Virus genome (UHGV): UHGV-1632715
Direction: 5' to 3' (one strand)
Source of the DNA: a virus
DNA: 10,490 nucleotides
Shown here: positions 8 through 10,490 of the stretch, piece by piece
How the letters are laid out: the number at the start of each line of letters is the position of its first letter
Numbering within the stretch: the first letter of the stretch is position 1
The notes under the pieces: generated by a model
What the model saw: the letters and a program-made list of their open reading frames with translations, nothing else
What the model was told of the DNA's origin: nothing
The model's database searches: none
Made by a program: the position numbers and the translations under genes

Positions 8-298
8 TTAACAGCTTTTGTTTGGATACTGCCTTCGTGAGTGAACTACATTTACGATCTCGATGTTAGATGCTGTTACTCGGTAAAGTATTATGTAGTT
101 AGGATGGGTCACTATCTCACGAAGGCCTAGAGCTCTTTCGCTTGGTGGATACAGGTAAGGGTGTTCAGTAAGTGACAAAACTGATGTTTCAATGCGTATT
201 TTTAGTCTACGTGCAGCGGGAGGGTTTTCCTTGGCAATATAGGCTACGATCTGACGCAAATCATCACGCGCAGAAGGTAGCCATAAAATGGGCAGCAT
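8..298 (-). CDS. parE2: Type II toxin, ParE/RelE superfamily (ParE2-like)
   Basis: 96-aa ORF starting MLPILWLPSARDDL with a ParE-like layout by eye. Its ATG overlaps the upstream antitoxin stop by one base (TAATG on the coding strand). Paralog number (parE1 vs parE2) is not certain from memory. Confidence 0.8.
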   Translation of the reverse strand: MLPILWLPSARDDLRQIVAYIAKENPPAARRLKIRIETSVLSLTEHPYLYPPSERALGLREIVTHPNYIILYRVTASNIEIVNVVHSRRQYPNKSC

Positions 299-489
299 TA
301 CTCACTCCTGTTCGTCGAAGCTATTTGCGCAATAAGGTTTTCCATTTCAGCCATTACTTCGTCATGCGGAATTGCAGGACGGGGGTCTGCGAGGCTTGCT
401 GCCACTTTGGTGCGTAACCATTCGTTATAGCTGTTTTCTTGTTCGATTGTTTCAAATTCTGAAATTATCGGGGAAAGGACTGTACTCAT
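298..489 (-). CDS. paaA2: Small antitoxin of the PaaA2 family, partner of ParE
   Basis: 63-aa ORF. The segment SEFETIEQENSYNEWLR..SLADPRPAIPHDEV matches my recollection of PaaA2 from E. coli O157; the C-terminal third differs from what I remember. GGAGG lies 7 nt upstream of the ATG (plus-strand CCTCC at 497-501). It sits immediately upstream of, and is translationally coupled to, the toxin. Confidence 0.75.
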   Translation of the reverse strand: MSTVLSPIISEFETIEQENSYNEWLRTKVAASLADPRPAIPHDEVMAEMENLIAQIASTNRSE

Positions 490-506: not shown

Positions 507-1007
507 TTAGGCGCGAAGACCTTTTTGCGCCTCTAGCCACCGCGCAACGGTTTCTTCAATTGATTCTTTTTTCTCCTTCATTTCCTTAAGCATTTTCTCT
601 TTGTCTTCTTTTGGGAAAGCCCTGAACGTCTGGATCAAATCTCGCTCTATAGGTTCTATATTAAACGGAAGTTCGTTTTCCGATTGTTCCATCTCTGCGG
701 GTAAAGCGACAACATTATCCTGCTGCAGTTCTTGGGGGTACATCCTTACAATTCGTAACAAGTCTGCCATATCTGGTCTAATTGACTCAGGCGGAACTTG
801 TAGCAACCCAGCGAACTTGATAACAGCCTCTAGATTTAAAGGTGTCTGACCATTTAGATAATGGCTTACTGCCCCTTGTGTCGAAAAACCCAGAATTTCT
901 GCCGCACGCTCTTGGGTTAACCCAAGTTGAGTTTTTTTCGTCGTCCAGATTTCTTTCAGTCTCTGGGCGGCTTGCAGGTCGATCTCTGACAGGGGTTTTC
1001 TTTTCAT
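507..1007 (-). CDS. paaR2: Prophage repressor, XRE/CI-type HTH (PaaR2-like), no recognisable S24 peptidase domain
   Basis: 166-aa ORF with an N-terminal HTH (QLGLTQERAAEILGFSTQGAVSHYLNG) of lambda-CI pattern. The C-terminal half is charged/helical with no GDSM or Ser-Lys autocleavage motif seen. It is divergent from the cro-like gene across an operator-bearing spacer and is followed 17 bp later by the antitoxin gene. Confidence 0.8.
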   Translation of the reverse strand: MKRKPLSEIDLQAAQRLKEIWTTKKTQLGLTQERAAEILGFSTQGAVSHYLNGQTPLNLEAVIKFAGLLQVPPESIRPDMADLLRIVRMYPQELQQDNVVALPAEMEQSENELPFNIEPIERDLIQTFRAFPKEDKEKMLKEMKEKKESIEETVARWLEAQKGLRA

Positions 1008-1114: not shown

Positions 1115-1378
1115 ATGAATCTTGGAGAATATTTGCATCATTCCCGTATAACCCAGAAAGATTTTGCTGAAATTGTTGGGGTAACCCAAGGGATGGTAAG
1201 CCATGTTATTACTGGACGGGCGAAACTTACGGGGGGGAAAGTTTTACGCTGGTGTGAAGCAACAGGGTGGGTAGTGACCCCGCACGAGATTGATAGCAGT
1301 ACTTACCCCAACCCAACCGATGGCATACCTGTTGACTATCAGGCTAACACACAACCCGCGCTGGGAGTTGATTCATGA
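1115..1378 (+). CDS. ydaS: Cro-like HTH regulator (YdaS family)
   Basis: 87-aa ORF with HTH ITQKDFAEIVGVTQGMVSHVITG. GAGGTG SD at 1105-1110 precedes the ATG at 1115. It is the first gene of the rightward operon and its stop overlaps the next start (ATGA). Confidence 0.7.
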   Translation: MNLGEYLHHSRITQKDFAEIVGVTQGMVSHVITGRAKLTGGKVLRWCEATGWVVTPHEIDSSTYPNPTDGIPVDYQANTQPALGVDS

Positions 1379-1800
1379 AAATCAAGCATGAACACATCCG
1401 CATGGCGATGAATGTCTGGGCGCATCCGGACGGCGAAAAAGTACCGGCTGCGAAAATTACCAAAGCGTATTTCGAGCTGGGAATGACGTTCCCGGAACTG
1501 TATGACGACAGCCATCCGGAAGCCCTGGCCCGTAATACCCAGAAAATTTTCCGTTGGCTGGATAAAGACACCCCTGATGCTGTTGAAAAAATGCAGGCTC
1601 TGTTACCGGCGATCGAAAAGGCGATGCCGCCTTTGCTGGTGGCCCGTATGCGCAGTCACAGCTCTGAATATTACCGTGAGATCGTCGAACGGAGGGATCG
1701 GCTGGTGAAAGATGTGGATGATTTTGTCGCAGCGGCGATCGCCTGGGGCACCCTGACTAACAGTGGTGGTCAGCCTGGTAATGCTGTTGTCGTGCATTGA
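1375..1800 (+). CDS. ydaT: YdaT-family protein (CII functional analogue of Rac/CP-933P-like prophages)
   Basis: 141-aa ORF with N-terminus MKIKHEHI and C-terminus VVVH, matching my recollection of YdaT. Start overlaps the ydaS-like stop. Confidence 0.65.
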   Translation: MKIKHEHIRMAMNVWAHPDGEKVPAAKITKAYFELGMTFPELYDDSHPEALARNTQKIFRWLDKDTPDAVEKMQALLPAIEKAMPPLLVARMRSHSSEYYREIVERRDRLVKDVDDFVAAAIAWGTLTNSGGQPGNAVVVH

Positions 1801-1868
1801 CCAACAATATTCATGCCGGATTTCTTCCGGATGTTCGAGGGTAAAGTTCGGTATCAGATGAGGTGAGT

Positions 1869-2900
1869 ATGGCTAATGCCTGGCTCAGATTGTGGCATGA
1901 CATGCCAAATGATCCCAAATGGCGAACCATTGCCAGGGTCTCAGGACAGCCAATCGCAACAGTGATGGCGGTGTATATCCACCTTCTGGTGAGTGCGTCA
2001 CGAAATGTCACGACATGTCACGGCGTGTCACTACGTGGTCACATTGATGTCACGACGGAAGATTTAGCAAGTGCGCTTGATGTGACGGAAGACGTAATTG
2101 ATTCAATTTTGCATGCAATGCAGGGGCGGGTTCTGGATGGTGACCTTATTTCCGGATGGGAAAAACGTCAGGTGCTGAAAGAGGACAATGGTAACGTTTC
2201 GCAAACGGCAAAATCCCCGGCAGAGCGCAAGAGAGCGCAGCGGGAGCGGGAAAAGCTGCGGAAACATAATGCTGATTGTCACGATGAGTCACGACGTGTC
2301 ACGCATCTGTCACGACAAGTCACGACAGATAAAGATACAGATACAGAATTAAACCCCACACATAACGCGCGCGAGAGTATTCCGACCAGTGAGTCGAATG
2401 GTGCGCCGTTGCAGACAGCCGAACCTGAATACCTGGACGGCCTGAGCGAACCCATCGGGAAATTTTCGATGACTACTGTCTGGCAGCCGTCGCCGGATTT
2501 TCGACAACGGGCGGCAGTGTGGGGTATGGCTCTGCCTGAGCCGGAATTTACACCTGCTGAGCTTGCCGCATTCCGGGATTACTGGATGGCGGAGGGGAAG
2601 GTTTTCACGCAGGTTCAGTGGGAGCAGAAATTTGCCCGCCACGTGCAGCACGTCAGGGCACAGGTAAAACCAGTCAGCAAGGGGGGAAGCCATGCAGCAT
2701 CAGGTGGCACGGCATCACGGGCAGTTCAGGAAATCCGGGCAGCACGCGAACAGTGGGAACGTGACAACGGATTTATCAGCAACGGAAACGGCCTGGAAGC
2801 TGTGGGAGCTTATGGGGGAGGTGTATTCGAACCGCTGGACTCAGAAGAACGGGGCCGCACCTTCGAAGCTCTGGATTGCCCAGATTGGCACGATGACTGA
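1869..2900 (+). CDS. Replication initiation protein (O-like replisome organizer) with DnaT-like C-terminal region
   Basis: The N-terminal WLRLWHDMPNDPKWRTIA region is replisome-organizer-like. The central/C-terminal segment GKFSMTTVWQPSPDFRQRAAVWGMALPEPEFTPAELAAFRDYWMAEGKVFTQVQWEQKFAR aligns by eye with the E. coli DnaT C-terminal domain. The gene contains two iteron clusters. ATG 1869 is preferred over GTG 1863 because GAGGTGAG at 1858-1865 serves as the SD. Confidence 0.75.
   Translation: MANAWLRLWHDMPNDPKWRTIARVSGQPIATVMAVYIHLLVSASRNVTTCHGVSLRGHIDVTTEDLASALDVTEDVIDSILHAMQGRVLDGDLISGWEKRQVLKEDNGNVSQTAKSPAERKRAQREREKLRKHNADCHDESRRVTHLSRQVTTDKDTDTELNPTHNARESIPTSESNGAPLQTAEPEYLDGLSEPIGKFSMTTVWQPSPDFRQRAAVWGMALPEPEFTPAELAAFRDYWMAEGKVFTQVQWEQKFARHVQHVRAQVKPVSKGGSHAASGGTASRAVQEIRAAREQWERDNGFISNGNGLEAVGAYGGGVFEPLDSEERGRTFEALDCPDWHDD
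1997..2058. repeat. Iteron cluster 1: about six GTCAC(G)-core repeats at ~10-bp phasing
   Basis: Repeat starts at 1997, 2007, 2017, 2027, ~2038 and 2049 (gtcacgaaat / gtcacgacat / gtcacggcgt / gtcactacgt / ggtcacattgat / gtcacgacgg), inside the initiator gene. Confidence 0.6.
2278..2329. repeat. Iteron cluster 2: five GTCACG-core repeats at ~10-bp phasing, followed by an A/T-rich stretch
   Basis: Repeat starts at 2278, 2288, 2298, 2309 and 2319, followed by gataaagatacagatacagaattaaa at 2330-2355. Confidence 0.6.
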
Positions 2901-3354
2901 ACAGCAAATCCGGCTGGTCTGCCGTCAGTGCATGGACCGCTGCCGGGCGGGTGAAACGTGGCCCCCGGACCTGGCTGAGTTTGTTGCGCTGATTTCGGAG
3001 AGTGGGGCAAATCCATTTGGTCTTACGGTGGATGCCGTGATGGAAGAGTACCGGCGCTGGCGCAATGAATCCTGGCGATACGACGGGAGTGATAAATACC
3101 CGTGGCCACAGCCTGTGCTGTACCACATCTGCCTCGAAATGCGTACCAGAGGGATTGAGCGCCAGATGACGCAGGGTGAGTTAAAACGACTTGCGGAACG
3201 GCAACTGACGAAATGGGCAAAGCATGTTGGTAACGGGATGAGTGTTCCGCCAGTGCGACGACAACTGGAAGGGGCGAAACACCCGCAAGGGCCAACGCCA
3301 ATTGAACGGCTGAAACAGGAATACGAACGCCGGAAGGCAGCTGGTTTTATTTGA
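2692..3354 (+). CDS. Replication protein P-like (helicase loader family of lambda P)
   Basis: By-eye similarity to lambda P: YPWPQPVLYHICLEMR vs YPWKSNAHYWLVTNLYQNMR, GMSVPPVRRQLEG vs GEAIPEPVKQLPVMGG, and an upstream TMTEQQ-like segment. ATG 2692 is preceded by GGGGGG at 2681-2686. It overlaps the initiator gene by 209 nt in another frame; alternative starts are 2812 and 2893. Confidence 0.7.
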   Translation: MQHQVARHHGQFRKSGQHANSGNVTTDLSATETAWKLWELMGEVYSNRWTQKNGAAPSKLWIAQIGTMTEQQIRLVCRQCMDRCRAGETWPPDLAEFVALISESGANPFGLTVDAVMEEYRRWRNESWRYDGSDKYPWPQPVLYHICLEMRTRGIERQMTQGELKRLAERQLTKWAKHVGNGMSVPPVRRQLEGAKHPQGPTPIERLKQEYERRKAAGFI

Positions 3355-3387: not shown

Positions 3388-4113
3388 ATGGAAACCGTAT
3401 TTGACGCACTGAAAGCACTGAAAAGAGCCTCTTCACAGGTAGTGGCGGCCCGCCTTGGAATCAGCCGTGAAGATGCGGTCAACGAACTGTGGAAACTGAA
3501 GCGCCGCGGTGAAGCGGATAACAAGGGTTCGATGTGGCGGCTGATTCAGGCTGGTGAAAGTGAACCGGTGTCACCGGTACCGAAAGTGACAGCGCAAATG
3601 CTGACTGAGGCGATTGAACAACATGGCCCACAAACGGCGGATGAGCTGGCACTGATGTTCGGGATTACCTCCCGCCGGGCGAATTCATCGCTGGCCATGG
3701 CAATCAGCAAAGGGCGTCTGATTCGCGTGAATCAGGGCGGTAAATTTCGTTACTGCATACCGGGCGCTGATTTACCGGCAGAGCCGGAAGCTGCATCCGT
3801 AGCGGAAACCGATGGTAAAGCCTTTCCTCAGCCAGCAGGTGTTGCGTTACCTGTCCGGGAAGCAGAAACACAGGAAGAAATAAAAACGGAAAGTGTGGCG
3901 GTCACAGTGCAGTCACAGCCGTCGTTCACCAGAAAACATCCGGATGGTCTGATTTTACCATCGCTGCATGTGGCTAACCGCGAGCTGCGCCGGGCAAAAG
4001 GTCAGGTTCAGAAGTGGGAGCGAGTCTGCGCCGCGCTGCGGGAGCTGAACAAGCACCGGGATATTGTTCGACAGATTACTGATTCTTCCCGCCGTGTTGT
4101 ATCGGAAAAGTGA
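3388..4113 (+). CDS. Hypothetical phage protein (two winged-helix-like segments; possibly DUF1627-like)
   Basis: ATG 3388 is preceded by GGAGGA at 3375-3380; the ORF track began at an upstream TTG. No catalytic motif recognised. Confidence 0.6.
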
Positions 4114-4128
4114 TTGCCGGAGGCGCTT

Positions 4129-4521
4129 ATGGCAAAAGTATTTACACCAGAAGAGCGGGAAGAAGTGAAGGCGCGCATTGTGGAATTCGTGCGCCTGAGC
4201 GGACGAGAAACTTTTCGACAACTGGCAGATAAAACGGGTGTCAGTAAGACCGCTATTCGTCGTTTATCTGGTGCGCTTGCGGCCAGTGGTGATGTCTGGC
4301 TCTCTGGTTGCGGGGTATTTCCATCAGAGCAGGCGTATCGCGTATGGCGTAAGACACCGGAGAAGGCTGCTGACCCGACACTGATTCGAAAGTTACCTGA
4401 CGGAGAAATACGTCGTTACAACAGACGGCAGAACATAATTTGTCGTGAGTGCAGGAGGAGCGAAGTTATGCAGCGTGTGCTGGCGTTCTATCGGGGAAAC
4501 TTTCAGGAGGTGATGGAGTGA
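4129..4521 (+). CDS. Hypothetical protein with HTH-like segment and C-terminal Cys pair
   Basis: ATG 4129 is preceded by GGAGG at 4118-4122. Contains ETFRQLADKTGVSKTAIRRL (HTH-like) and CRECRR. The stop overlaps the next start (GTGA). Confidence 0.55.
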   Translation: MAKVFTPEEREEVKARIVEFVRLSGRETFRQLADKTGVSKTAIRRLSGALAASGDVWLSGCGVFPSEQAYRVWRKTPEKAADPTLIRKLPDGEIRRYNRRQNIICRECRRSEVMQRVLAFYRGNFQEVME

Positions 4522-4814
4522 GGGTCAGAGTTTATATTGCCGGTCCAATGACGGGATATGAAAATTTCAACCGCGAGGCGTTTCACAGGGCGGAAGATGC
4601 GCTGAAACGGGAAGGGCATACCGTTTTAAACCCGGCAGTACTTCCGGACGGGCTGACACAGCCGCACTACATGGATATTTTCATGGCAATGATTCGTTGT
4701 GTGGATGCGATTTACATGCTGAATGGCTGGCAGCGGTCAGCGGGCGCTAAGGCAGAGCTGGCACTGGCGGAGAAACTGGGGCATGCAGTGATTTATCAGG
4801 AGGTGGCTCAATGA
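4518..4814 (+). CDS. DUF4406-like protein (nucleoside 2-deoxyribosyltransferase-like fold family)
   Basis: The motif RVYIAGPMTGYENFN...V.NP...ML.GW..S.GA..E matches the DUF4406 pattern as I recall it. Proposed GTG start at 4518, 7 nt after GGAGG at 4506-4510, gives 98 aa; the 121-aa track ORF likely over-extends upstream. Confidence 0.6.
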   Translation: MRVRVYIAGPMTGYENFNREAFHRAEDALKREGHTVLNPAVLPDGLTQPHYMDIFMAMIRCVDAIYMLNGWQRSAGAKAELALAEKLGHAVIYQEVAQ

Positions 4815-5272
4815 GAGAGGTTAACTATGAGGCGCTTCGTGAGGCAGCACAAAACTATCAGTCGACGCTGGCGTGGTATCAGGCTATCCCGGACAGCCCA
4901 AATGCTGAACGGGATTGTGATGCGGCTCTTGCTGCGTTTAAGCGTCACATCCGTCATCGGGAAGCGGATATTATCGCTGATTTGCTGGATGGACTGGAAG
5001 AAGCAAAATCACAACTCAAAGAGCAGCGTGAGTATTACGAAGGCGTTATCTCTGATGGGAGCAAGCGTATTGCTGAACTGGAAGCGCGGGAAGTTCAATT
5101 ACCGACTCGCTACGACCTTCGATATGGACACCCGATAAATGCAGATGAGCGACATGTCATGATACCTAAAGAAAATGGCAGTTGGCTTTACCTGATTGAC
5201 CTAGAACACGCATTACGCGTCTCTGGCATTCGCATCAAAGGAGAGGAGCATGGAAATAAAACCAGAGGATGA
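4811..5272 (+). CDS. Hypothetical phage protein
   Basis: 153-aa ORF whose ATG overlaps the previous stop (ATGA); GGAGG at 4798-4802. No family recognised. Confidence 0.6.
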   Translation: MREVNYEALREAAQNYQSTLAWYQAIPDSPNAERDCDAALAAFKRHIRHREADIIADLLDGLEEAKSQLKEQREYYEGVISDGSKRIAELEAREVQLPTRYDLRYGHPINADERHVMIPKENGSWLYLIDLEHALRVSGIRIKGEEHGNKTRG

Positions 5273-5606
5273 GTTAAGCAATATCGTTTTATTTCCGGTA
5301 AAAGAGGATGACCCTCGTAATCAGGTTAATTTTCTTTATGAGCCATCGGAAAGACCATATTGTCATCACGCCTCTGTCCGGGTTGACGAAAAAGAGCGTC
5401 AGGTCCGCTGTAAAATCTGCGGTGCAGTTGTGGAGCCATTTGACTGGATGCTCTCTGTGGCGAAAAGAGAAACCAGACTGGCAGATGATGTAAGGCACTT
5501 GCGCCAGGAGGAGCGGGAAAGGCGAAAAAATATAGAAAAGCTAATTCAGATTGAGCGTAACGCGAAAGCGCGGATACGCAGGGCGACAAAATCCAGAACT
5601 GAATAA
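5250..5606 (+). CDS. Hypothetical protein with zinc-ribbon-like motif and basic coiled-coil tail
   Basis: 118-aa ORF with CHH...CKICG spacing and a C-terminal RQEERERRKNIEKLIQIERNAKARIRR. Overlaps the upstream gene by 23 nt. Confidence 0.55.
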   Translation: MEIKPEDELSNIVLFPVKEDDPRNQVNFLYEPSERPYCHHASVRVDEKERQVRCKICGAVVEPFDWMLSVAKRETRLADDVRHLRQEERERRKNIEKLIQIERNAKARIRRATKSRTE

Positions 5607-5699
5607 TTAAATTTAGCTCTGTTAAAAATTTAATCCTTAACCGGAGGGATTTCTGCACCCTCAGAACATCAGGAGGCCGCCCGAAAGGGCGGTAGTTAA

Positions 5700-5882
5700 A
5701 TGCGAAAGTTTAAAATAATTATTGAAACGGGAATAGCCGGTGGAGATTTCGAGGATGAATTCGAAGTGGATGATGATGCGACGCCTGATGAAATACATGA
5801 CGAAGCAAAAGATATTTTCTTTAACTACTGCAATTACTCATATCACGAAATAAAAGACGAAGAGGAAGAGCAAAATGGCTGA
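5700..5882 (+). CDS. Small highly acidic protein (60 aa)
   Basis: About 20 Asp/Glu against 5 Lys/Arg by my count. AGGAGG at 5671-5676 is separated from the ATG by a 6-bp GNRA-loop hairpin (5677-5692). Confidence 0.5.
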   Translation: MRKFKIIIETGIAGGDFEDEFEVDDDATPDEIHDEAKDIFFNYCNYSYHEIKDEEEEQNG

Positions 5883-6051
5883 TTTTGGTTCAACTAAATA
5901 CAACGTCAGTTTTGAAGCATGGCATGAACTGTTAATGGACTATGCAGAGTTACGTGGTGGCAGTGCTGCTGATGCTGAAGCATGGCGTGATGATTATGAA
6001 GCAGGAAAAACTCCGGTCGAAGCATATTGTGATGAGTGGGGCGATGAATGA
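5875..6051 (+). CDS. Small acidic protein (58 aa), not in the ORF track
   Basis: Hand translation: MADFGSTKYNVSFEAWHELLMDYAELRGGSAADAEAWRDDYEAGKTPVEAYCDEWGDE. Its ATG overlaps the upstream stop (ATGGCTGA) and its stop overlaps the next ATG at 6048. Confidence 0.4.
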   Translation: MADFGSTKYNVSFEAWHELLMDYAELRGGSAADAEAWRDDYEAGKTPVEAYCDEWGDE

Positions 6052-6563
6052 GCGAGATTAATTATCAGGAAGGGCATGAAACGGCAGGGGAGGCAAAAAC
6101 AGTTGCATGGCGATATCGCTACGTGAAAAAAGACGTTACAGACTTTCAGGGGAAGCCGTGGGCTGGTGACTGGAAATATGTACCGACAAAAGAGGATTGT
6201 AACGACAGGCCGAACTATGAAATTCAGGCCTTATTCATCGGCCCGCCAGTCCCGGTGACATCAGAAGGACTGGTTAAAGCCGTGCGCTTTTATGAACAGG
6301 TAAAGCGTGAGAATCCGCCAGTCGAAACAGGAGCATGGAAGGATGCTGTTGACTGGGTGCTCAGAGAGGCCTGCTGCGCTGCCATTCTGGGTAAAGCCGA
6401 CAATCCACCAGCATCCGGCAATCAGGTTAGCGAATTAACAATGTGGGTTAAACGACTGGTCAGTCAACTGAAAAAAGCTCAGCCGGACTGCAAATTACCG
6501 GAGAAGGCGATGGATTACCTGAAACGAAATGGACTGATAAGCGTGGAGGATGTTTTACGATGA
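6048..6563 (+). CDS. Hypothetical phage protein
   Basis: 171-aa ORF, translationally coupled to the upstream small ORF. No family recognised. Confidence 0.6.
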   Translation: MSEINYQEGHETAGEAKTVAWRYRYVKKDVTDFQGKPWAGDWKYVPTKEDCNDRPNYEIQALFIGPPVPVTSEGLVKAVRFYEQVKRENPPVETGAWKDAVDWVLREACCAAILGKADNPPASGNQVSELTMWVKRLVSQLKKAQPDCKLPEKAMDYLKRNGLISVEDVLR

Positions 6564-6683: not shown

Positions 6684-6863
6684 ATGAAAAACGCATTGCA
6701 GTTTTTGTTTGTTGCGTTCTGGTTGTTCGCATCATGTATGCCCATCATCTTCACAGCAAGGTATATGGAAAAAATTGATGTTTTGATATTAATGTTTGGA
6801 CATATAAATGCCCTTTTTTTAGGGGTGTTCATGGCGGTCATGTGCATTGAATACTGGCGGTAA
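6684..6863 (+). CDS. Small hydrophobic protein (59 aa, two predicted TM helices) in AT-rich island
   Basis: ATG 6684 is preceded by AGGGGGA at 6673-6679. Hydrophobic segments ALQFLFVAFWLFASCMPIIF and INALFLGVFMAVMCIEYW. Base composition is visibly lower in GC than the flanks. Confidence 0.4.
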   Translation: MKNALQFLFVAFWLFASCMPIIFTARYMEKIDVLILMFGHINALFLGVFMAVMCIEYWR

Positions 6864-6950: not shown

Positions 6951-6964
6951 GCGGGTGCTTGAGG
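6951..6964 (+). promoter_or_regulatory. 5' element of hok mRNA (tac-like) complementary to the 3' fbi-like element
   Basis: GCGGGTGCTTGAGG is the near-perfect reverse complement of CCTCAACGCACCCGC at 7329-7343, with one unpaired base. Confidence 0.55.
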
Positions 6965-7065
6965 CTATCTGTCTCAGGCATGAACACCAAAAGGCAGATA
7001 GAGAAAAGCCCCAGTTAACATTACGCGTCCGGCAAGACGCTTAACATTAATCTGAGGCCATATCT

Positions 7066-7272
7066 ATGCTCTACACACGTAGGTTAGCCTCTTACGGACC
7101 GAAAGGTCAAGGAGAAGCAGGCTATGAAGCAGCAAAAGGCGATGTTAATCGCCCTGATCGTCATCTGTTTAACCGTCATAGTGACGGCACTGGTAACGAG
7201 GAAAGACCTCTGCGAGGTACGAATCCGAACCGGCCAGACGGAGGTCGCTGTCTTCACAGCTTACGAACCTGA
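7066..7272 (+). CDS. mok-like overlapping reading frame (modulator of hok translation)
   Basis: 68-aa ORF in a different frame that starts 58 nt upstream of hok and spans almost all of it, as in hok/mok loci. Confidence 0.45.
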   Translation: MLYTRRLASYGPKGQGEAGYEAAKGDVNRPDRHLFNRHSDGTGNEERPLRGTNPNRPDGGRCLHSLRT

Positions 7273-7279
7273 GGAGTAA
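7124..7279 (+). CDS. hokD: Hok/Gef-family type I toxin (HokD/RelF-like), 51 aa
   Basis: Hand translation MKQQKAMLIALIVICLTVIVTALVTRKDLCEVRIRTGQTEVAVFTAYEPEE matches my recollection of HokD. Flanked by the mok-like frame, 5'/3' complementary elements and a terminator. Below the ORF-track length cutoff. Confidence 0.85.
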   Translation: MKQQKAMLIALIVICLTVIVTALVTRKDLCEVRIRTGQTEVAVFTAYEPEE

Positions 7280-7726: not shown

Positions 7727-8785
7727 GTGCGGGTATTACTTCGACCTGTTCTGGTACCGGAACTCGGGCTGGTGATCGTTAAGCCGGGCCGTGAATCCAT
7801 GCCGGTATTCCACAATACCCGGGTACTGGTGGAGCCGGAACCGAAAAGCATGCGTAATCTGCCGTCCGGAGTCGTCCCTGCTGTTCGCCAGCCGCTGGCG
7901 GAGGATAAATCATTACTGCCATTTTTCAGCGACGAACGAGTGATTCGTGCTGCTGGTGGCGCTGGCGCATTGTCTGACTGGTTACTGCGCCATGTTAAAT
8001 CCTGCCAGTGGCCACACGGTGATTATCATCACAGCGAAACCGTCATTCACCGTTACGGTACCGGCGCGATGGTGTTGTGCTGGCACTGCGACAACCAGCT
8101 GCGTGACCAGACATCCGAATCACTCGGGCAACTTGCTCATCAAAACCTGTCAGCATGGATGATTGACGTCATCGGTCACGCAATAAGCGGTACGCAGGAG
8201 CGTGAATTATCTCTGGCTGAATTATCCTGGTGGGCGGTCCGCAATCAGGTGGCGGACGCGCTACCGGAAGCGGTATTACGTCGTTCGCTGGGGTTGCGTG
8301 CGGAAAAAATCCGCTCAATGTACCGTGAAAGCGACATCGTACCGGGAGAGCAGACCGCCACCAGCATACTGAAACAGCGCACAAAAAATCTTGCGCCGCT
8401 GCCTCACGCCCACCAGCAACAGAACCCACCACAAGAAAAGACGGTGGTCAGCATTGCCGTTGATCCGGAATCTCCGGCTCAGTATCTCCAGCGCCAGAAA
8501 CCACAACGGGAAGAGATGCCTGTATACACGCGCTGGGTAAAAACGCAGAAATGCATGACGTGTGGCAATCAGGCAGATGATCCGCATCACATCATTGGTC
8601 ATGGACTGGGAGGGATGGGAACAAAGGCTGACGATTTGTTTGTTATTCCGTTGTGCCGTAAATGCCATAACAAACTACATGCCGGAGTAAAAGATTTTGA
8701 AGAAAAACACGGCAGTCAGTTGTTGTTGCTGATTCGTTTTTTAATGCACGCGAGAAATTCGGGTGTTCTGAAGTGGAAAGCATAA
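7727..8785 (+). CDS. Possible DUF968-family phage protein (YdfU-like) with C-terminal HNH-like Cys/His motif
   Basis: 352-aa ORF with GTG start 5 nt after GGAGG (7717-7721), directly after the upstream stop. The C-terminus CMTCGNQADDPHHIIGHGLGG...CRKCHNKLH resembles an HNH/zinc-finger signature. The DUF968 assignment is from memory. Confidence 0.6.
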   Translation: MRVLLRPVLVPELGLVIVKPGRESMPVFHNTRVLVEPEPKSMRNLPSGVVPAVRQPLAEDKSLLPFFSDERVIRAAGGAGALSDWLLRHVKSCQWPHGDYHHSETVIHRYGTGAMVLCWHCDNQLRDQTSESLGQLAHQNLSAWMIDVIGHAISGTQERELSLAELSWWAVRNQVADALPEAVLRRSLGLRAEKIRSMYRESDIVPGEQTATSILKQRTKNLAPLPHAHQQQNPPQEKTVVSIAVDPESPAQYLQRQKPQREEMPVYTRWVKTQKCMTCGNQADDPHHIIGHGLGGMGTKADDLFVIPLCRKCHNKLHAGVKDFEEKHGSQLLLLIRFLMHARNSGVLKWKA

Positions 8786-9151
8786 ATGACCGAACGCATA
8801 GAATTTGTTTTGCCTTACCCGCCGACGGTGAACACTTACTGGCGACGCCGTGGCAGCACATATTTTATCTCGGAGGAGGGAAAGCGTTATCGCCGGGCTG
8901 TGGCGCTTATTGTTCGCCAGCAGCGGCTGAAATTAAGCCTGTCCGGAAGGCTGGCGATAAAGGTGATTGCAGAGCCACCGGATAAGCGTCGTCGCGACCT
9001 GGACAACATTCTGAAAGCACCGCTGGATGCGCTGACGCATGCGGGGTTGTTAATGGACGATGAGCAGTTTGATGAAATCAATATTGTACGTGGTCAGCCA
9101 GTATCTGGTGGACGGCTGGGTGTGAAGATTTACAAAATTGAGAGTGAGTGA
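8786..9151 (+). CDS. rusA: Holliday junction resolvase RusA
   Basis: 121-aa ORF; the core PDKRRRDLDNILKAPLDALTHAGLLMDDEQ aligns with E. coli RusA ([23 protein letters not shown]..DDAQ) as I recall it. Confidence 0.9.
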   Translation: MTERIEFVLPYPPTVNTYWRRRGSTYFISEEGKRYRRAVALIVRQQRLKLSLSGRLAIKVIAEPPDKRRRDLDNILKAPLDALTHAGLLMDDEQFDEINIVRGQPVSGGRLGVKIYKIESE

Positions 9152-9714
9152 GCGTAAATATGATATATCCGGAAATTACAGGCAAAAGCGGCGAGCATTT
9201 ACGCCTAAAAACGCTGGAAGCAGTCTGGATCCAAGGGCGATTACGGATGTGGGGGCGTTGGTCGTATATTGGCGGCGGTAAGACGGGAAATATGTTCAAC
9301 CAATTACTGACCTCTAAAAAGCTGACAAAAACGGCAATTAACGAGGCGCTCCGGAGGATGAAAAAAGCTGGTCTGGACAAACCTGAACTTGAGGCTTTTT
9401 TGCGGGATATGATCAACGGCAATCAAAAAAGCTGGCTGGCACATTGTACCGATTCAGAGGCGTTAATAATCGACAGGGTTATTGGCGAAGTCCTGGCAGG
9501 CTATCCCGGGCTGCTCAATGTCCTGAGTCAGCGTTATGTGGGGCGGGGGATGACTAAGCGCAAAATGGCTGAACTGCTGAATGATGCACACCCGGAATGG
9601 AGTTTAAGAACCTGTGAAAGACGCATTGAGCATTGGCTAAAGGTGGCAGAATTTATTTTGTACAAACCAATGGTTATGGCTTTTGGTATAGAGAAAAAAG
9701 TTATTGCTTTTTGA
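9148..9714 (+). CDS. Putative late-gene antitermination protein (Q-like), assigned mainly by position
   Basis: It is the last gene before a promoter-like sequence, a hairpin and a strong terminator, downstream of rusA as in lambdoid nin-Q regions. The start is either GTG 9148 (overlapping the rusA stop) or ATG 9160. I cannot match the sequence to a specific Q family. Confidence 0.5.
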   Translation: MSVNMIYPEITGKSGEHLRLKTLEAVWIQGRLRMWGRWSYIGGGKTGNMFNQLLTSKKLTKTAINEALRRMKKAGLDKPELEAFLRDMINGNQKSWLAHCTDSEALIIDRVIGEVLAGYPGLLNVLSQRYVGRGMTKRKMAELLNDAHPEWSLRTCERRIEHWLKVAEFILYKPMVMAFGIEKKVIAF

Positions 9715-10146: not shown

Positions 10147-10466
10147 ATTTGTGGTAAATGGGCGGCTGGTGGGTGTGGTGGTTGTTGCTTTCCCGTTGCT
10201 GAAAAAGAAAGCATCAGGCGATTAGCAGGGTATCAGTTACCCGTTGAAATTTTTAAATACCTCACAATTCAGGCGGTTGACTGTTGTCTGGTTTGCGGGG
10301 AGTTTGTTAAAAGAAACTGGCATGGTGAATCCCCCTGTGCGGAGGGGCAATCAGCAACTGGTGTTTTGTCACCGACCCTTATCCTTTCTGTGCGGGTTCA
10401 GGTGCTGATACTGAACTCACCGGGAGGCACCCGGCACCATGCAATGGCACATAGCGCCACTCTCCA

Positions 10467-10490
10467 GCCCCTCTCCGGAGGGGCTTTCTT
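10467..10490 (+). terminator. Hairpin with short T-rich tail, possible terminator, truncated by window end
   Basis: Stem GCCCCTC / GAGGGGC with loop TCCG, followed by tttctt. Confidence 0.35.

Follow-up and report, generated by a model that had tools for sequence, protein, structure and literature searches.

The DNA analysed here is a stretch of 10,490 nucleotides (hereafter the window) from the virus genome UHGV-1632715, and it corresponds to the part of an E. coli lambdoid prophage that runs from the immunity genes to Q. This text concerns the block of eight genes (g1 to g8) at positions 3388-6563. A preliminary description of the DNA had placed eight open reading frames (ORFs) in this region, and all of them were present on the plus strand. 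The block is bounded by the replication genes (O and P) on one side and by hok/sok, DUF968, RusA and Q on the other, which is the position of ren/nin in lambda. Comparison of gene content showed that it is a mosaic of separately exchangeable modules and not one machine. The genes and the single spacer of the block are as follows.

3388-4113, plus strand: g1, DUF1627 (YdaW-like) protein, 241 aa (PF07789, phrog_630)
4129-4521, plus strand: g2, DUF977 / Ren-like winged helix-turn-helix (wHTH) protein, 130 aa (PF06163, phrog_142)
4518-4814, plus strand: g3, DUF4406 protein, 98 aa, GTG start (PF14359, phrog_355)
4811-5272, plus strand: g4, Ead/Ea22-like protein, 153 aa (PF13935, phrog_250)
5250-5606, plus strand: g5, protein with a zinc ribbon and a long helix, 118 aa (phrog_1621)
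5607-5699, plus strand: non-coding spacer of 93 nt between g5 and g6 (sequence, RNA fold)
5700-5882, plus strand: g6, DUF7167 small acidic protein, 60 aa (PF23768, phrog_1997)
5875-6051, plus strand: g7, small acidic protein without a Pfam family, 58 aa (phrog_519)
6048-6563, plus strand: g8, mosaic protein, 171 aa (phrog_660)

Five of the eight products passed Pfam gathering thresholds (DUF1627, DUF977, DUF4406, Ead/Ea22 and DUF7167, for g1, g2, g3, g4 and g6, respectively), and all eight matched PHROG families (630, 142, 355, 250, 1621, 1997, 519 and 660, from g1 to g8). The preliminary description had recognised a family for DUF4406 only, which does not hold; g2 and g4 have studied relatives (Ren and Ea22), and g3 has a confident enzyme fold. 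Winged-helix (g1, g2), zinc-ribbon (g5) and acidic (g6 and g7, pI about 4.05) proteins were found as it had said, and none of the eight products returned a housekeeping phage function. The NCBIfam search of the eight products gave nothing above threshold. The PADLOC models gave nothing credible, with best E values of 0.006-0.05 over short HTH-like stretches and no match for five of the eight proteins. PDB sequence searches with single sequences of g3, g5 and g8 and with profiles of g3 and g5 showed no meaningful relatives, and the literature search on DUF4406, DUF1627, DUF977, DUF7167 and LygF found no functional study. The block consists of catalogued families in an arrangement annotated in hundreds of genomes, and it is not a new system.

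Megablast against 5426 complete E. coli genomes detected some part of the block in 3759, of which 311 carried at least 80% of it. Syntenic prophages share a frame in which P or a DnaC-like loader is followed by DUF1627, by DUF977 or another small DNA-binding gene, and by DUF4406. After DUF4406 come an Ea22-like gene and g5, then nothing, a 213-nt ORF, or a 408-nt ORF with HNH, and then DUF7167, which is followed by g7, by g8 or an Ea22-like gene, and by hokD. Within this frame, otherwise syntenic prophages had g2, g4, g5 or g8 replaced by alternatives, or carried insertions between g5 and g6, and the homology breakpoints lay at gene or domain boundaries. A sample of 80 loci from IMG/VR, all encoding an identical g6, showed the g5-g6-g7 trio to be near-constant, with g3-g4 in about one third of the loci, g2 abutting g5 in another third, and g8 variable. 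Furthermore, a segment of about 4 kb (Ea22-g5-ORF-g6-g7-Ea22-DUF4014-HNH-ORF-ParE/ParD) was found in two phage contexts, the leftward exo-xis region of the Stx phage ArgO145 (L003, 5016-9394) and, in E. coli 10205, the rightward early region of a prophage of the Rac type (L006, 3924-7780), which shows cassette exchange between leftward and rightward early operons. The GC content also changes along the block, from about 0.53 in g1-g4 to 0.42-0.46 in g5-g7, in keeping with a mosaic. The block had been presented as a single unit; the comparison instead showed independently recombining modules that are very common in E. coli. One defence or anti-defence system formed by all eight genes was rejected, because the genes assort independently.

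We consider it probable that the block belongs, as the accessory part, to the rightward early operon of a lambdoid E. coli prophage of the Rac/YdaT type, and that it is a mosaic of exchangeable modules whose products would act as non-essential modulators. In the best-supported description, it is the counterpart of the ren/nin interval in the rightward operon, to which an Ea22 cassette of the exo-xis type has been fused. Three other explanations, which are brought in below, ranked below this mosaic early array, and individual genes may still fit them.

The stop and start codons overlapped at five of the seven junctions. Direct reading of the sequence gave GTGA at 4518-4521 for g2/g3 (4 nt), ATGA at 4811-4814 for g3/g4 (4 nt), a 23-nt overlap at 5250-5272 for g4/g5, ATGGCTGA at 5875-5882 for g6/g7 (8 nt), and ATGA at 6048-6051 for g7/g8 (4 nt), exactly as quoted earlier. 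The unbroken chain of eight coupled genes that had been drawn from these junctions was not found, as it breaks at g1|g2, where a 15-nt gap carries GGAGG 5 nt upstream of the ATG at 4129, and at g5|g6, where the 93-nt spacer lies. RefSeq annotation has identical starts and overlaps in homologous prophages, and the overlaps survive replacement of a neighbour, since in two prophages (L007 and L009) another wHTH gene overlaps DUF4406 by 4 nt. pN/pS (the ratio of nonsynonymous to synonymous polymorphism) was mostly 0.05-0.5 where divergence was sufficient, which together with the family matches indicated that the eight ORFs are genuine coding genes. The five overlaps are unremarkable in themselves, because such overlaps are normal in tightly packed phage operons; translational coupling at these junctions is plausible from the layout.

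The whole block lies on the plus strand. A crude scan for consensus promoters and terminators showed no plus-strand promoter-like or terminator-like site beyond chance inside 3388-6563, with counts at or below the shuffled expectation, and both the common strand and this negative fit a single operon. As to the lambda nin terminators tR2-tR4, whose removal gives N-independence, the scan showed one weak terminator-like site, at 3329-3345, upstream of the block. These results bear on the explanation that the block is a prophage-expressed lysogenic-conversion or superinfection-exclusion locus transcribed apart from the lytic programme. Such a locus would fit the nearby autonomous modules hok/sok and ParE/PaaA2 and the lower, moron-like GC content of g5-g7. 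However, the orientation and tight packing are the same as in the early operon, the scan showed a promoter-like site neither ahead of g1 nor within the spacer, flanking terminators did not exceed the chance level, and PADLOC gave no match, so that we regard this explanation as very improbable compared with an accessory part of the early operon.

In the spacer between g5 and g6, a Shine-Dalgarno sequence (AGGAGG, 5671-5676) is followed by a hairpin (CCGCCC-GAAA-GGGCGG, 5677-5692) with a 6-bp G+C stem and a GAAA loop, then by 7 nt and the ATG of g6. The RNA fold of the spacer had an energy of -30.3 kcal/mol (z -2.46). The Shine-Dalgarno sequence and the hairpin were kept upstream of g6 in every context examined, whatever gene precedes, and the stem variants seen were C-to-U only, with G-U pairs retained. 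The IMG/VR scan with g6 gave 100%-identical proteins only, and therefore holds no real covariation evidence for the hairpin. In T4 genes 25 and 38, a hairpin shortens the distance between the Shine-Dalgarno sequence and the AUG. By analogy, the hairpin here probably shortens the gap between the Shine-Dalgarno sequence and the g6 AUG to a functional length, and if so, g6 would start a second translational run independent of g5. An Rfam scan found no RNA family within the block, and outside it only sok, STnc100 and weak chance-level matches. Pas small RNAs (sRNAs) were also considered for the block and rejected, as the paper mentioning DUF1627 puts them near esterase/holin/lysozyme, downstream of Q.

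The first gene of the block, g1, matched PF07789 (DUF1627) with 276.5 bits against a cutoff of 28.1. Its product is basic, with winged-helix-like regions at residues ~1-55 and ~66-125, an acidic, proline-rich linker and a C-terminal helical region, and Pfam gave sub-threshold wHTH matches in both halves, so g1 is predicted to be a tandem winged-helix DNA-binding protein. The product of g2 (pI 10) matched PF06163 (DUF977) with 141.9 bits against 22.1 and phrog_142, 'Ren-like exclusion protein', with an E value of 3.8e-43. BLASTP showed 28% identity to lambda Ren (E 2e-8), with a C-terminal CRE/KECRxSxxMxRVLAxY motif common to both, and on this sequence comparison g2 is a homologue of lambda Ren. 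Ren lets lambda escape Rex exclusion.

As in lambda ren/nin, the block follows the helicase-loader gene and precedes Q within the rightward early operon, includes a sequence homologue of Ren and is made of small, overlapping genes that are non-essential in type. In contrast to lambda, the Pfam and PHROG matches of the eight proteins included no homologue of ninB-ninI, g2 is 34 aa longer than Ren and preceded by a DUF1627 gene, and recombination/junction functions come from the downstream DUF968 and RusA. The term nin-like, given to the block earlier, therefore holds for its position between P/ren and Q and not for its gene content. A related arrangement was seen in the full-length Rac prophage Rac-SA53, where ydaW-LygF-rac19-ead (DUF1627, DUF977, DUF4406 and ead) follow ydaU/ydaV in the same order; unlike in the window, other genes follow ead and the region is broken by IS1, and the identity to the g1 and g2 proteins is ~66-68%. 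The K-12 Rac remnant retains no more than a fragment of the DUF1627 gene, ydaW, which matches g1 residues ~75-138 and is located next to rzpR.

The third gene, g3, matched PF14359 (DUF4406) with 123.5 bits against 22. An AlphaFold2 (AF2) model built from a 30-sequence alignment had a mean pLDDT of 90.0 and a pTM of 0.83. The top hits of this model against PDB in Foldseek were nucleoside 2-deoxyribosyltransferases (NDT; 2a0k and 8pqr), MilB (4ohr) and DNPH1 (Rcl), with BcmB also found. The top 13 PDB matches were all NDT, MilB or DNPH1, with a probability of 1.00 and template modelling (TM) scores by query of 0.69-0.78; TM by target was only ~0.5, as g3 has 98 aa and the targets 130-160 aa. Residues Y6, S74, G76 and E80 were invariant in 30 homologues. 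In a weak hhalign match (E 0.13) to a human DNPH1 sequence with self-consistent numbering, Y6 corresponded to Y24 and E80 to E104, and the candidate aspartate pair (D53 and D80) was offset by 2 residues. We are confident, from the model, that g3 has the fold of a miniature NDT/MilB/DNPH1 protein. It shares the Rossmann-like fold of NDT, the MilB-BcmB CMP/hmCMP N-glycosidases and DNPH1 (Rcl), and keeps both the tyrosine that closes strand 1 and the nucleophile glutamate within the SxGxxxE motif; unlike these enzymes, it is without the C-terminal segment that completes the substrate/phosphate site and has no PDB match at the sequence level. Judging from the modelled fold, g3 is probably an enzyme that acts through Glu80 to remove the base from a (deoxy)nucleotide or to transfer it, and DUF4406 would be a distinct minimal family beside the NDT/DNPH1 enzymes. 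DUF4406 relatives are widespread in Vibrio, Arthrobacter, Mycobacterium and Aeromonas phages.

The position of the first three genes bears on a second explanation, that g1-g2-g3 form an auxiliary replication module, in which the winged-helix proteins g1 and g2 would work on the origin, close to it, or on the O/P-helicase complex and g3 would condition the nucleotide pool, the other genes being unrelated passengers. DUF1627 always came directly after the helicase-loader gene (lambda-P-like or a DnaC-like 'ATP-binding protein'), and in RefSeq-annotated homologous prophages it is directly 3' of replication protein P. Ren has the same place in lambda; one preprint describes it as probably linked to replication and as interacting with the Rex proteins in a two-hybrid assay, as O does (bioRxiv 10.1101/2021.04.19.439022). 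In addition, DUF4406 relatives in Arthrobacter and other phages sometimes adjoin exonuclease or MazG-like nucleotide genes, and the PHROG matches of g3 include fusions with a MazG-like pyrophosphatase. Against such a module, g2 is swapped for unrelated small DNA-binding genes in some prophages, and many loci have g2 directly abutting g5, with g3 and g4 missing. Lambda ren is non-essential, and the repeat search found short chance-level matches only, with no origin-like iterons in or beside the block. We therefore hold a dedicated replication module to be doubtful.

The Ea22 relationship was carried by g4, which matched PF13935 (Ead/Ea22) with 46.1 bits against 27. Residues 1-108 were 39% identical to residues 1-118 of lambda Ea22, including EQREYYEGVISDGSKRIAELE, and in the N-terminus and coiled coil EQREYYEGVISDGSKRIA.LE was identical. 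The alignment ends at g4 residue 108; the C-terminal 45 aa are unrelated to lambda Ea22, and the lambda-type dimeric C-terminal domain, which has been solved by nuclear magnetic resonance (NMR), is not present in g4. Ea22 C-terminal domains are known to differ among phages (PMC10834534). Ea22 favours lysogeny (PMC7093339, PMC10834534), and the exo-xis genes have modulatory roles in lysogeny and induction (PMC7093339, PMC3824215).

The next gene, g5, matched phrog_1621 with an E value of 2e-56. In its product, a C-x-H...C-x2-C zinc ribbon is accompanied by a DPFD-like motif and by a long helix with a basic ERNxKARxRR stretch at its end, and residues C38, H40, R50, C54 and C57 were conserved in 38 diverse members. 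The family is large (698 clusters at 50% identity, E<=1e-3), with no Pfam entry and no PDB relative, and gave elsewhere only sub-threshold matches to the TFIIB zinc ribbon and to coiled coils. A relationship of g5 to Ea8.5 was considered and rejected, as no similarity to lambda Ea8.5 was found. The two following products are strongly acidic. g6 matched PF23768 (DUF7167) with 55.1 bits against 24.4 (pI 4.05, net charge -15), and g7 matched the C-terminal half of the phrog_519 profile with an E value of 2e-22 (pI 4.06, net charge -11) and is annotated in RefSeq as hypothetical, always after DUF7167. A short internal repeat (EAWHE ... EAWRD, 5913-5990), in the form of a 15-nt direct repeat 63 nt apart, was also seen in g7.

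The last gene, g8, matched phrog_660 with an E value of 1.2e-72 and gave no Pfam, NCBIfam, PADLOC or PDB match. Three modules could be distinguished, a small beta domain (~17-64), a middle helical module (~66-110) and a C-terminal helical module (~111-171), each of which occurs separately in other proteins. Its first residues, MSEINYQ, are an Ea22-type start, and beyond the first 7-16 residues nothing is shared with Ea22 proteins. Most of its 1645 homologues span only 56-67% of the query, with no more than one or two of the modules in common, and have other ends, including DUF551 and Ea22 domains. The AF2 model of g8 was poor (pLDDT 53.5), and residues ~20-60 alone reached 74-82.

Compared with the exo-xis region of lambda and Stx phages (ea22, ea8.5, orf61, orf63, orf60a), the block has in common the Ea22 N-terminus and coiled coil in g4. 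The leftward region of Stx phage ArgO145 contains a g4-g5-g6-g7-Ea22-like cassette, and g5 relatives are present in 933W-type phages. The block differs in that its cassette lies in the rightward operon, and from lambda in the C-terminal domain of g4 and in g5, which does not resemble Ea8.5.

The small acidic proteins and the fold of g3 bear on a third explanation, a counter-defence or host-takeover island made up of the whole block or of some of its genes. Here g1 would block abortive-infection toxin effectors, g6 and g7 would be protein or DNA mimics inhibiting host nucleases or restriction, and g3 would break down a signal nucleotide or a modified one. The homology of g2 to Ren, known for escape from Rex exclusion, fits this explanation, as do the nucleotide N-glycosidase/transferase fold of g3 with its catalytic motif kept, the size (58-60 aa) and net charges (-15 and -11) of g6 and g7, and the probable early expression and high gene-content turnover, which are typical of conflict genes. 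Moreover, an overexpression screen for prophage 'blockers' of the retron-Sen2 toxin RcaT listed ydaW of the K-12 Rac remnant, a member of the g1 family, among them (bioRxiv 10.1101/2020.06.22.160242). This is only a lead, since it concerns a truncated K-12 protein in a screen and the text consulted gave no targeted follow-up. Acidity alone is weak evidence, g6, g7 and g8 had no usable structure, and no sequence match to a known defence or anti-defence protein was obtained with PADLOC. We thus think it unlikely that the block is such an island, and likewise unlikely that at least one of its modules has an undescribed counter-defence function. The candidates for such a function would be a DUF1627/YdaW-like blocker of abortive-infection toxins of the retron RcaT type, the near-constant g5-g6-g7 trio as a mimic-type inhibitor complex, and the 98-aa mini-NDT as an enzyme that would destroy a nucleotide, be it an immune signal, a toxic one or a modified one.

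For the preferred reading, an accessory mosaic in the rightward early operon, the following course of events is proposed. The block would most likely be transcribed only after induction or infection, as an extension of the cro-ydaT-O-P transcript. Translation would probably proceed in two tightly packed runs, g1-g5 and g6-g8, with re-initiation within the runs favoured by the overlapping stop and start codons, and g6 appears to initiate from its own Shine-Dalgarno sequence, brought near the AUG by the conserved hairpin. A 5' set after the replication genes comprises g1 (DUF1627/YdaW-like), g2 (Ren-like) and g3 (DUF4406), and an 'Ea22 cassette', found in the leftward exo-xis region in other phages, comprises g4, the g5-g6-g7 trio and g8. 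By analogy with Ren and the exo-xis genes, the products may tune the lysis-lysogeny decision, replication, host physiology, and phage-phage or phage-defence conflict.

Several points weigh against this reading. Co-transcription and translational coupling are read from the layout, and g1-g5 each carry a good Shine-Dalgarno sequence of their own, so that coupling may be unnecessary. The near-constant association of g5, g6 and g7 means that part of the block could be a functional unit after all. For g3, the match to PF05014 (Nuc_deoxyrib_tr) reached 14.2 bits, below the cutoff of 28.8, and this together with the short C-terminus, where the final segment of the characterised NDT/DNPH1 enzymes is missing, suggests that g3 may bind and not cleave nucleotides. 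Finally, the literature searched shows no demonstrated biochemical activity for DUF1627, DUF4406, DUF7167 or PHROGs 1621, 519 and 660.

The finding itself is of little weight, as thousands of E. coli genomes already have these genes in their annotation, as DUF or hypothetical proteins, and lambdoid early operons typically show this layout. The families are extremely common in prophages of pathogenic and commensal E. coli, including Stx phages. Four leads were obtained, namely the mini-NDT with its conserved motif, the Ren homologue, the YdaW-family protein whose relative scored as a retron-toxin blocker in the published screen, and the near-invariant g5-g6-g7 set, any of which could show in what way temperate phages adjust induction or escape host immunity.

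The other features of the window are as follows.

8-489, minus strand: ParE toxin / PaaA2-type antitoxin pair, adjoining the cI-like repressor
507-1007, minus strand: cI-like repressor
1115-1378, plus strand: cro
1375-1800, plus strand: YdaT-family gene
1863-2900, plus strand: O-like gene with a DnaT domain
2893-3354, plus strand: lambda-P-like gene
6684-6863, plus strand: unannotated hydrophobic ORF of 59 aa between g8 and sok/hok
6953-7279: sok/hok (sok: Rfam RF01794, 109.5 bits, overlapping the hok start)
7124-7279: hok-family toxin gene (the same protein is annotated hokD by RefSeq in related prophages)
7727-8785, plus strand: DUF968
8786-9151, plus strand: RusA
9148-9714, plus strand: Q-type antiterminator
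10291-10490: STnc100 sRNA (Rfam RF02076, 132.5 bits), downstream of Q and cut by the window end

In both ArgO145 and E. coli 10205, the Ea22 cassette is accompanied by a ParE/ParD pair related to the pair at 8-489. The 59-aa ORF at 6684-6863, which begins MKNALQFLFVAFWLF, is strongly hydrophobic and lies in an AT-rich spacer (GC ~0.39). It had no PHROG match and is possibly a small membrane-protein moron. The ORF was intact in three other E. coli prophages, with 98-100% identity.

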